A DNA stretch of 64,000 bases from contig JAKAJD010000002.1 of the NCBI GenBank assembly GCA_021813945.1, positions 97,343 through 161,342 on the forward strand, given 5' to 3'. Made by a program: the position numbers. Below, one piece after another: positions 45,001 to 48,000 of the stretch; position 1 is the stretch's first letter, and each line of letters begins with the position of its first letter. The stretch is from a bacterium. GTDB taxonomy: Bacteria; Patescibacteriota; Microgenomatia; Curtissbacterales; GWA2-41-24.

Positions 45001-48000
45001 AGAGCATCCGCATCTCTTCTCCAAAGAAGATTAAGGATTGGATACGCAAGGGCGGCTAGGCTTTTGGACGAGCTAGAATCGGAAGGAATCGTAGGCCCCG
45101 GCGAAGGTTCGAAACCTAGAGATGTCCTTGTCAAAAATCCCGATGATTATTTCGCGTCGCAAGGCCAAGTAGAAGCGCAGGCATAAAGCCTTATGAAAAA
45201 TCTTGGCGAAACGCTTTCGGAAACAAGAAAGAAAAAGCACATCTCCACAACTCATGCAGCTTCCGATCTTCTCATTAAAAAAGAACACATAGAAGCTTTA
45301 GAATCTCAAGACTGGCAAAGTCTTCCAGAGCCTACATTTGTAAAAGGCTTTATAAAAAGTTACGCAACGTATCTTGGTTTGGATGCCGACCATATTCTTG
45401 CAATCTACAGAAGGGAATTTGACGAATCTAAGTTCCAGAAGCAGCATAAAAATCCGAGAGCCGAAAAAAGGCTATTTTTAACGCCAACAAGGCTTATAAA
45501 TTTAGCATTTATCTTTGCAATTTTTGTTTTTGTCGCCTATATTCTTATTACTTTTTCTTCAATACTTTCTACACCAAAACTTGAAGTTTTATCACCTCAG
45601 CCGGACATTACCACCTCTGTCCCGGTCGTTCAAGTTATCGGCAAAACGGACCCTGAGGCCACAGTTTCCATAGCAGGCGAATTCGCACCGGTTGACAACC
45701 AGGGAAATTTTTCGAAAGAATATTCTCTTTCTCAAGGGAAAAACGATATAGAAATAATATCCTCAAAACGTCTTTCCCCAAAAGCAAGAATTATAAGAAC
45801 CGTCAGGCTCATTCGATAATCGACGTTGACAAATAGGTTTGCTTACAGTATATCTACTTTACAGTAAAGGTTCTGCCCATGGACGCAACTCAAGCGGTAA
45901 TTCTATCATCCATAATCGTCTTAACAATCCTTCTGGCTGTTATTGCCTACCAGCTATTTTTTGTTCTAAAAGAGTTAAAAAACACTCTCAAAAAAACCAA
46001 TAAGATTTTAGATGACGCACAAGATTTTGTAACCCAAATTAAAAAACCAATTGAATCTGCAAATAGCCTCATTGCGGCAGTTACCACAGGTGCCGGAGTT
46101 GCCCATTTTCTAAAAAGGATAAAGGAGGCGGAAAAACATGAGCGACGAGAAAAATAATTCTCTTAATAATTTTTTAACGGGGGCAATTGTCGGTGCTGTT
46201 GTCACTTTTCTTTTTGCAACCAAAACCGGCAGAAAAATCAAAGATGAGCTGCTTGAAGAAGGCTCAAGGCTTATTGATGCAATATCCGATGAAATCGATG
46301 ATGCCCCGCAGCAAGTAAAAGATACAAAAAAGGAAATAAAAAAAGAATTAGCCGAAAAGGCCGATCAAGTCGAAGATTTCAAAGAGGGGATACGAGACTC
46401 AGCTCAAGAAATTTTGCGTGAAGTGCCCGAACAAGCGGAAAACATCCAAAAAAAAGGCCGCCATTTCTTTTTCTCCAAAAAAAGTAATCCCAAAAACGAA
46501 TCCTGATTTCTTGCTTTTACAACGAGGCTCAAATATAATGATTTTATGGCTAAAGTTTTAAGCCATTATTTCACAAGAATTAACACTTCCTAGGGAGGTT
46601 TTAGTTTCTGTGGAACAAACCTCCCTAAGGGGAGGTTTTTTTGTGGGAAAAAGGAGGTGAAAAAATGAAAGAACAATTTCAAGACAAATACAATCCTGTT
46701 TGGCCAGATGCCAAAGGCGAGTTGGCAGGTCAGCCTGTCGGAAAAAGCATATTCGAAAATAGTTGCTGGCTGCCTATGCCTGAAGCTAAAACCGGATCGG
46801 AAAATAATAAAGCGAAAATGGTAAAAGTTGAGGTAATGGTTTAATTGATATAATTTAATCTATGACATCTGTCGAACTTCGCCAGAAGTACCTTAAATTT
46901 TTTCAAGGCCGAGATCATAAAATCATTCCGTCAGCTTCACTAATTCCATCTGAAGAAGTAGAGCTGGCGGGGACGGAGCGCGTGCTTTTTACAACAGCCG
47001 GCATGCATCCTTTAATTCCGTATCTTATGGGCAAAAGTCATTCGGAAGGGACCCGCTTGGTAAACGTTCAAAAGTGTTTGCGAACCGATGATATCGATGA
47101 GGTTGGGGACGCGGTCCACAACACTTTTTTTGAGATGCTTGGCAATTGGTCTTTGGGAGATTATTGGAAAGAAGAGGCCATCACTTGGTCATACGAATTC
47201 ATGGTCAATGAACTTAAGTTGGACTCGAAGCGAATTTATGTATCGGTTTTTGCTGGGGACAATGATGCACCTTTCGACCAGCAGTCATACGATACATGGA
47301 TTAAAGTTGGCATACCCGAAGACCACATTTTTAAATACGGCAAAGAAGATAATTGGTGGCCAACAGGCGGCGAAAAACCGGGACCACAAGGCCCTGATAC
47401 AGAAATGTTTTATGATCTTGATCCTCGGTCAAAGTCCCCAATCGACCCATCAGCAAACAGCCAACGTTTTGTTGAAATTTGGAACGACGTTTTTATGGAA
47501 TATGAAAGACAAGCTGACGGCTCATACACCCCGCTCAAGCAAAGAAATGTTGATACGGGTATGGGCCTTGAGCGCATGCTCACGGTTTTACAAAAAGCCC
47601 CTTCAATTTACGAAACCGATGTCTTTTTGCCGCTTATGAAAAAAATCGAGGACATGACAGATTTCTTCAGCGACTCATCCGCTCGCATTGTTGCCGACCA
47701 CATACGAGCGGCAGTATTTCTCATTTCAGACGGTGTTTCACCATCAAACGTTGAACGTGGATACATCCTACGCCGCCTTATCCGCCGCACCATCCGTCAC
47801 GCCTCACTTTTAAAAATCGACCAGAATTTTTTATCGGAATTTTCAAAGGTTGTCATCAAAACTTACGAAAATATTTACCCTGATTTAGTTGAACACCAAC
47901 AGTTAATAAGTACCGAACTCCAAAAGGAAGAACAAAAATTCAAAAATGCCCTTGCTCAAGGACTTAAAAATTTCGAAAAAATTTCCGGTAATATCTCAGG

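Follow-up and report, generated by a model that had tools for sequence, protein, structure and literature searches.

Which gene, if any, is governed by the short region that separates a ytxH-like gene from alaS in a Curtissbacteria-like genome, and is that region a switch or simply a place where transcription ends? A preliminary description of this region (positions 46511-46664, forward or + strand, of the window, the whole stretch of 64,000 nucleotides (nt) of DNA that was analysed) saw in it an attenuator-like leader placed before a small open reading frame (ORF) and alaS, or else nothing but the terminator of the ytxH-like gene. The answer favoured here, tentatively and with somewhat less than even confidence, is that the region is a trp/phe-type attenuator with a leaderless leader ORF, derived from a duplicated terminator, which would gate an orphan ORF of 59 amino acids (aa) and not alaS. 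A cis-acting conditional terminator is preferred to an incidental one because the region brings along its own conserved promoter and is exceptionally well conserved, because the small ORF behind it depends on read-through, and because ytxH is followed by no terminator in relatives that lack this module. The elements, their alternative pairings and energies, the conservation and a geometric model of the ribosome were established here, and we infer the transcription start, the translation of the leader ORF, termination and switching. The window was read directly at 46000-47200, where the coordinates of the leader were checked.

Relatives for comparison were gathered through a protein index and contig look-ups. 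The named homologues of the alanyl-tRNA synthetase (AlaRS) belong to Candidatus Curtissbacteria, at 70-77% identity, and the best AlaRS identities in species-representative genomes (52%) and in JGI metagenomes (57%) were too low for intergenic comparison. The leader itself was found in a close strain (locus L083) and in the diverged lineages L164 (AlaRS identity 85%) and L165-167 (84%), identical copies of the region being present in several assemblies. The alignment comprises four distinct sequences (the window, L083, L164 and L165), with three diverged lineages, and it is to these that the statements on invariance below refer.

Segments and folds of the leader

Three mutually complementary elements had been noted in the leader, and all three were found where they had been placed, in structures that are more stable than those of shuffled sequence. 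Element A (GGGAGGTTT, 46593-46601) forms segment 2 and element B (AAACCTCCC, 46617-46625), which pairs with A or with C, forms segment 3, while element C (GGGGAGGTTT, 46629-46638), together with the T7 run at 46636-46642, makes up an invariant stretch (46629-46642) of the B:C terminator hairpin, P2. A repeat finder reported an exact direct repeat of 10 nt whose copies, A and C, are spaced by 37 nt, A:B as 11 nt of 100% complementarity and B:C as 12 nt of 92% complementarity. A fourth complementary element, ACTTCC (a', 46585-46590), had been overlooked; it coincides with codons 14-15 of the leader ORF, is invariant in the four sequences, and can pair with A, in hairpin P1, or with C, in a longer hairpin. 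Within A the GGGAGGT is invariant and the tail reads TTGT in L164 and TCTT in L165. Element B reads AAGCCTCCC in L083, L164 and L165, a change (AAACC to AAGCC) that does not discriminate between the pairings, since a G-U pair results with both A and C.

Before B is transcribed, the minimum-free-energy fold of the RNA consists of two hairpins, P0 and P1. The first (46546-46566) is a 5' hairpin of 6 base pairs (bp) (ATGGCT/AGCCAT) that includes the ATG of the leader ORF and is weak on its own (-5.6 kcal/mol, z = -1.6); the relatives retain its stem, in which a single U-A pair has become U-G, and differ at four positions of its loop. The second (46569-46615) joins segments 1 and 2 in a stem of 20 bp, interrupted by two 1x1 mismatches, with the UAG stop as its triloop (-18.0 kcal/mol, z = -4.9), and its substitutions in relatives fall at the mismatches or at sites compatible with wobble pairing. 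The B:C hairpin that follows (46617-46638, -14.9 kcal/mol, z = -3.3) has a 9-bp stem with six G-C pairs, lies 22 nt before the ATG of the small ORF and, with its T run, is predicted to be an intrinsic (Rho-independent) terminator. In a scan of the 40-55 kb interval, where 19 terminator-like sites were found against 17.3 expected in shuffled sequence, it was the top site and the sole textbook terminator. As regards the hairpin, the earlier account of a textbook terminator with a 9-bp stem and U7 is upheld, but the full stem and the full U7 cannot be had together: the seven T residues do not follow C, as had been stated, for the run overlaps the TTT of C, so that a stem of 9 bp leaves UUUUGUG as the tail, and U7 leaves a stem of 6 bp.

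A and C compete for B. The A:B helix, capped by an inner hairpin (GTTTC TGT GGAAC, 46604-46616) one of whose pairs is C-G in half of the four sequences and U-G in the rest, reaches -19.3 kcal/mol (z = -4.2), and the global minimum of the leader is one long hairpin (46569-46648, -42.4 kcal/mol in total, z = -4.4) that combines A:B with ACTTCC:C. A:B had been proposed as an exclusive antiterminator. The two pairings do exclude each other, but A:B is insufficient by itself, because C can then pair with ACTTCC and the hairpin still abuts the U tract. How closely the pairings compete is shown by a separate terminator scan, which overlooked B:C because its 45-nt upstream fold preferred A:B. Across the four sequences, paired cells amount to about 98% in both folds, P0+P1+P2 and A:B (97.7% for the latter). 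A Logan contig (SRR13241953, locus L178, positions 1-12) ends exactly within element C (GGAGGTTTTTTT...), where the internal repeat or hairpin may have broken the short-read assembly.

Leader ORF, promoter and ribosome position

Upstream of the leader a -10 hexamer, TATAAT (46534-46539), perfect and invariant, is preceded at 17 nt by a -35-like hexamer, TTGCTT (46511-46516), in which only the TTG fits the consensus TTGACA (three of six positions) and which was for that reason left unlisted by a consensus promoter scan. The promoter had been called near-consensus, which is right for the -10 box and finds support in the conservation of both hexamers but goes too far for the -35. In the relatives the latter reads TTGCTT (L083 and L165) or TTGTTT (L164), with a spacer that differs in sequence and measures 17 nt in the window, L164 and L165 and 18 nt in L083, and the distance of 6 nt from the -10 to the ATG at 46546 (GATTTT in the window) is fixed in length and varies in its bases. 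Hexamers that are kept, a variable spacer and a fixed distance to the ATG make this a credible promoter.

A layout of this kind is common in the window. A TATAAT-like box, often TGnTATAAT, lies 6-11 nt before the start codon of about 14 of the 63 window ORFs, and at 6-7 nt in at least seven genes, alaS among them, in agreement with the earlier remark that several genes share this spacing; the geometry at 46534-46546 is therefore the normal leaderless layout of the genome. Sites of the GGAGG or AGGAG type were seen before only about half a dozen window ORFs, and leaderless mRNAs appear to be the main expression route for the first genes of operons in this Curtissbacteria-like genome. Examples of starts with the box 6-7 nt upstream are those at 9576-10580 (- strand), 25416, 26836, 28216, 28584, 29887 and 46862, the box often reading TTTTGCTATAAT or TGnTATACT.

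The ATG at 46546 opens a 15-codon ORF (MAKVLSHYFTRINTS, 46546-46593), predicted to be leaderless, whose TAG stop (46591-46593) abuts element A, just as had been reported. Frame and stop are kept in the relatives, the ORF reading MASLLGHYFTRINTS in L164 and MANLLSHYSTRINTS in L165 with no indels, and all its codons are common in the host genome. Indels are in fact absent from the whole of 46546-46616 and occur directly 5' of B, as differences of 0, 1 or 2 nt, and in the run of A residues before the ATG of the small ORF. Two alternative upstream ORFs were set aside, one starting at GTG 46610 and the other at TTG 46641, which would extend the small ORF in frame, since their frames are broken by 1-2-nt indels in L164 and L165. 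It could be argued that the 15-codon ORF is itself the product of the locus, a leaderless micro-gene for a 15-aa peptide with its own terminator. Its geometry is indeed that of real genes of the window, and its six C-terminal codons (10-15) show two changes only, both synonymous; nevertheless, four of its first nine residues change, and non-conservatively, the conserved codons double as an arm of P1, so that structure accounts for their conservation, and homologues elsewhere are lacking, all of which renders the micro-gene very improbable.

Returning to attenuation, pairing probabilities were computed at equilibrium (partition function) for the transcript up to C, the ribosome being represented as a mask from -12 to +14 around the P-site codon. 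With no ribosome, or with the P site on codons 1-4, P1 and B:C form with a probability of 0.93-1.0 and termination would be expected. On codons 5-9, A:B forms, C pairs with ACTTCC (0.66-0.95) and the resulting hairpin abuts the U tract, which would probably still terminate, while on codons 10-11 A:B forms with C mostly or fully free, and read-through would be expected. On codons 12-15 or the stop, A is masked and B:C forms, with termination expected again; the earlier proposal that a ribosome at the leader stop would mask A and leave B:C is thus reproduced by the model. The pattern is the same in all four sequences, C being unpaired only at P-site codons 10-11, and the narrow stretch that permits read-through coincides with two invariant codons, ACA-AGA, the A site then being on AGA or AUU. 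In the model, then, the selection of the fold by ribosome position reproduces trp-type logic.

The mechanism proposed runs as follows. Transcription would start at the A of the ATG at 46546, as the TATAAT-N6-ATG geometry suggests, and the leader RNA would fold P0, then P1 with its UAG loop, and then B:C with the U tract. In ribosome-free RNA, P1 and B:C would form and transcription would stop near 46643, and a ribosome that reached the UAG would cover a' and A, allowing B:C to form again with the same outcome. Were a ribosome to be stopped with the P site near codons 10-11 (Thr ACA and Arg AGA, the A site being on AGA or AUU), it would cover segment 1 and a' and leave A free; A would then pair with B, C would be without a partner, and RNA polymerase would read into the small ORF led by a Shine-Dalgarno (SD) sequence. 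The features found that an attenuator should have are a short leader ORF near the predicted start, four segments, a 3:4 terminator before a gene and a modelled fold that depends on position. Ribosome-mediated attenuation agrees with the leaderless layout, with the retention of the frame and with the geometry of the model.

Conservation, origin and the genes downstream

The strong SD (AAGGAGGTGA, 46651-46660), the 59-aa ORF (46665-46844) directly behind the terminator, and then alaS follow the leader in the order that had been described, which was confirmed by reading. Such a strong SD is unusual for the window; it is invariant in the relatives and unpaired in all folds. The small ORF measures 58 aa in L164 and 62 aa in L165, with a protein identity of 36-56% and a retained motif, SIFENSCxLxMP, and it is considered a real gene because frame, start, SD and motif are conserved at that level of identity. 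Since it lies 22 nt past a strong terminator with no promoter between, it would be expressible only by read-through. HMMER matches of its product to "GKSIFEN" repeats in a leucine-rich-repeat protein and to other large unrelated proteins were dismissed as spurious, and its AlphaFold model (pLDDT 60, no secondary structure) was uninformative.

The synthetase gene, alaS (46862-48634), encodes a short form of 590 aa with the Pfam domains tRNA-synt_2c and tRNA_SAD, and an extended -10 box (TGATATAAT, 46846-46854) stands 7 nt before its ATG. A box of the TGnTATAAT type is found 7-9 nt before the alaS ATG in L164, L165, L168, L170, L171, L172, L173 and L174, whether or not a leader is present. Because alaS has this conserved promoter, any gene that the leader regulates is the 59-aa ORF, and alaS is a neighbour that is probably not under its control. 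A link between the leader and alaS is not supported by this comparison, in which alaS kept its own box in every relative examined, with or without the leader; autoregulation of alaS or its control by a T-box was likewise rejected, alaS having its own promoter and no leader in any relative. The link to alaS regulation should be dropped whichever reading of the leader is adopted. The extended -10 of alaS persists despite differing upstream genes (ytxH, dapA or a reverse-strand gene), and upstream of alaS in L171 and L173 the stretch that contains the -10 occurs two or three times in tandem. Directly past alaS lies a 221-aa ORF (48642-49307), rich in Pro and Gln, with one hydrophobic stretch and no Pfam match, whose position is conserved in relatives (207-241 aa).

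The distribution of the module bears on whether the leader is more than the end of an operon. In L164 and L165-167 the gene order is ftsK, an HTH_25 gene, a DUF948-like gene, ytxH, the leader, the small ORF and alaS, and the entire module (promoter, leader, small ORF) is missing from relatives whose AlaRS identity is 79-83%: in L172 and L174, ytxH is followed by 60 nt without a terminator and then by alaS, in L168 and L171 dapA directly precedes alaS, and in L170 a reverse-strand gene lies in between. The module is therefore a clade-specific insertion of about 295 nt. In the close strain L083, which shows 86-99.7% identity to the window downstream in a mosaic pattern, the genes from ftsK to ytxH are replaced by an unrelated 303-aa gene (L083 39-950) of no family; from the -10 onward, the sequence of that strain is identical to the window save for three changes. 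A relationship of this gene to the 303-aa ORF of the window was considered and rejected, and it is likewise unrelated to the rest of the window. The homology of L083 starts inside the promoter, with a recombination breakpoint in the promoter spacer. Moreover, the leader is the most conserved segment of the locus, its nucleotide identity to the window being 88-91% in L164 and L165, against 75-79% for ytxH, 76-77% for alaS and 61-65% for the small ORF, a degree of conservation that would exceed the need of a plain terminator.

As to origin, local alignment resolves the region 46582-46649 (+ strand) into two diverged tandem copies (46582-46615 and 46618-46649) of a hairpin-plus-T-tract unit, with a score of 34 against 11.6 +/- 2.7 in shuffled sequence (0 of 2000 shuffles reach 34); Tandem Repeats Finder gave no report of a duplication in the leader. 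Such a duplication accounts for the likeness of a' to B and of A to C. It also raises the alternative that the leader is a constitutive double terminator, which would end the ftsK-to-ytxH operon and insulate alaS, A:B being an automatic consequence of the duplication, with a fixed, low read-through into the small ORF. The significant alignment of the two units, the absence of covariation in A:B, and the fact that both ribosome-free equilibrium folds place a hairpin beside the U tract would all suit such a terminator, and yet none seems to be needed there, since module-less relatives have no terminator after ytxH. The module, besides, carries its own promoter and is kept behind a different upstream gene in L083, its conservation lies above that of alaS, which is unexpected for a simple terminator, and a promoter firing straight into a constitutive terminator would be wasteful. 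The double terminator is regarded as quite improbable, and the thought that the element might merely be the terminator of ytxH is contradicted by the module-less relatives that do without one and by the unrelated gene that precedes it in L083.

Several observations weigh against the attenuator favoured here. The leader ORF fails to show the clustered codons for a sensed amino acid, or the known arrest motif, that such a leader ORF should carry: it contains no amino-acid run, a single Ala and no rare codons, and without a codon run no sensed signal can be named. A 5'-terminal AUG that is paired in P0 should, furthermore, impede leaderless initiation. Read-through is permitted over only some two codons, a result that hinges on the footprint assumed for the ribosome. 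As to evolution, the elements are kept in the relatives, but no pair was found with both sides changed, in either fold, among only three diverged lineages, and outer A:B pairs are weakened by two substitutions in A's tail. In a test whose structures were derived from one of the tested sequences, the variable columns are 6 of 69 paired against 10 of 25 unpaired for P0+P1+P2 (Fisher p = 0.001), and 5 of 43 against 11 of 51 for the A:B fold (p = 0.27); the substitution pattern would accordingly support the terminated fold only. Duplication of a terminator yields the 1:2, 2:3 and 3:4 topology automatically, and the architecture could therefore be a by-product. Finally, the small ORF, for which no function is known, has homologues in three syntenic copies only and belongs to no Pfam or NCBIfam family, and no second copy of the leader was found by nhmmer in the window and 178 fetched loci. 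A scan of viral contigs for the leader pattern gave no match either.

A pattern of substitutions that fits the fold P0+P1+P2 would also suit an independent small RNA, some 95-100 nt long, with three stem-loops, its own promoter and B:C as its end, which would work in trans or through binding to a protein; the 15-codon ORF would then be fortuitous and the small ORF served by leak-through. A conserved promoter with a strong terminator 100 nt further on, a very high nucleotide conservation of the kind typical of functional RNA, a hairpin flush with the predicted 5' end, which suits RNA stability better than leaderless translation, and a weak Rfam likeness to RNAs of three stem-loops (RNAI, 19.9 bits; istR, 23.8 bits) all speak for it. 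Nevertheless, the leader is always joined to an SD-led small ORF that lacks a promoter of its own, it is nearly all helical, with no conserved single-stranded stretch that could serve as a seed, it has no further copy and no Rfam family, and a small RNA would leave the indel-free retention of the frame and stop of the 15-codon ORF unexplained. We judge the small RNA, the likeliest of the rivals, to be unlikely.

A further possibility arises from P1, which is long and strongly conserved, with both internal mismatches retained, and from a sequence conservation that goes beyond what pairing requires. A factor bound to P0 or P1, be it the product of the small ORF, AlaRS or another RNA-binding protein, might decide between A:B and B:C, in which case the leader would sense a protein or a ligand, or else the long hairpin might be a processing site for RNase III. 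Another long leader hairpin does exist in the genome, between rpsO and pnp, but Rfam gave no match to a riboswitch or to a protein-binding leader, and the leader lacks conserved loops or junctions from which a ligand pocket could be built, so that the two variants, taken jointly, look improbable.

The rpsO-pnp interval just mentioned, between rpsO (S15, 38263-38526) and pnp (38669-40909, with the PNPase domains), contains a promoter-like TTGCCT-N17-TATAAT at 38528-38556 and a very long hairpin at about 38565-38652 (-44.3 kcal/mol, z = -7.3), with no Rfam match in the window. It resembles the pnp leader hairpin of E. coli, which is cleaved by RNase III. The only other clean hairpin-plus-T7 found on the + strand of the window, GGCGCTGTTTGCGCC followed by TTTTTTT (34355-34390), stands before a NusA-like gene at 34459, and canonical intrinsic terminators seem to be rare in the window.

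To our knowledge, next to nothing is known of how genes are regulated in bacteria of the Candidate Phyla Radiation (CPR), which cannot be cultured alone. The full form of the proposal is that a Curtissbacteria-like CPR member uses an attenuator whose leader ORF begins with the first nucleotide of the transcript, within a hairpin at the 5' end, an attenuator which arose by a recent terminator duplication, and which switches an orphan protein on only with a ribosome at two codons; it is advanced with more reserve than the attenuator as such, and we would call it a conjecture. If it were true, this would be the first attenuator described in the CPR, joining leaderless initiation to intrinsic termination, and classical transcription-translation coupling would be seen to act on leaderless messages in these bacteria. 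It would also be a young and traceable case of an attenuator born from a duplicated terminator, with a 59-aa orphan protein expressed only in a specific translational state. If there is no switching, the leader would be a well-conserved small RNA or a double terminator, of local interest only.

Comparison with known systems

No Rfam family reached its gathering score in the whole 64-kb window, riboswitch classes included, which bears out the earlier impression that the element belongs to no family that could be named. A permissive search returned sub-threshold matches only, driven by architecture (Phe_leader, mir-515, istR and RNAI). Phe_leader (RF01859), which scored 29.1 bits where 55 are required, aligned its long hairpin with P1 and its terminator with B:C; membership was rejected, the score being below the gathering threshold and the peptide not being rich in Phe (its single Phe is Ser in L165). 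A T-box leader was also rejected, with no match even at an E-value of up to 10 and a leader that consists of about 100 nt of plain hairpins.

In the trp attenuator, a leader ORF of 14-15 codons is combined with 1:2, 2:3 and 3:4 pairings and with a stop codon between segments 1 and 2. Like the enterobacterial trpL, pheL and pheM (pheST) leaders, its nearest counterparts in mechanism, the region has an ORF close to the promoter, four segments and a 3:4 intrinsic terminator, and, in the model at least, a ribosome at the stop would favour 3:4 whereas one held on segment 1 would favour 2:3. It differs from them in that the leader ORF has no codon run and neither a 5' untranslated region nor an SD, in that an orphan small protein lies downstream in place of a biosynthetic operon or an aminoacyl-tRNA synthetase, and in that segment 4 can pair with segment 1. 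Tandem intrinsic terminators offer a second comparison, since here too two similar hairpin-plus-T-tract units are set head to tail; in this leader, however, the T tract of the first unit is interrupted and paired within P1, a conserved promoter lies directly upstream, and conservation stands far above that of the flanking genes.

Leaderless ORFs that act as sensors are known from mycobacteria, where leaderless polycysteine short ORFs (sORFs) attenuate through stalled ribosomes that block a structure sequestering the ribosome-binding site (Canestrari et al., bioRxiv 10.1101/834739). The likeness lies in a short ORF at the 5' end of the transcript which would serve the downstream genes as a sensor of ribosome position. 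The mycobacterial sORFs have Cys runs and act on translation, whereas here an intrinsic terminator is found, the SD is free in all folds and there is no run; assignment to that class was therefore rejected, the leader ORF having no Cys and the downstream SD at 46651-46660 being unpaired.

A further parallel is BmrB-bmrCD of Bacillus subtilis, a ribosome-mediated transcriptional attenuation that senses translation stress (PMC4191407). Leader ORFs of the bmrCD type bear an SD and precede resistance genes, whereas the leader ORF described here is leaderless and precedes an orphan ORF; both systems place a short ORF without a codon run before a terminator/antiterminator, where slow or stalled ribosomes would lead to read-through.

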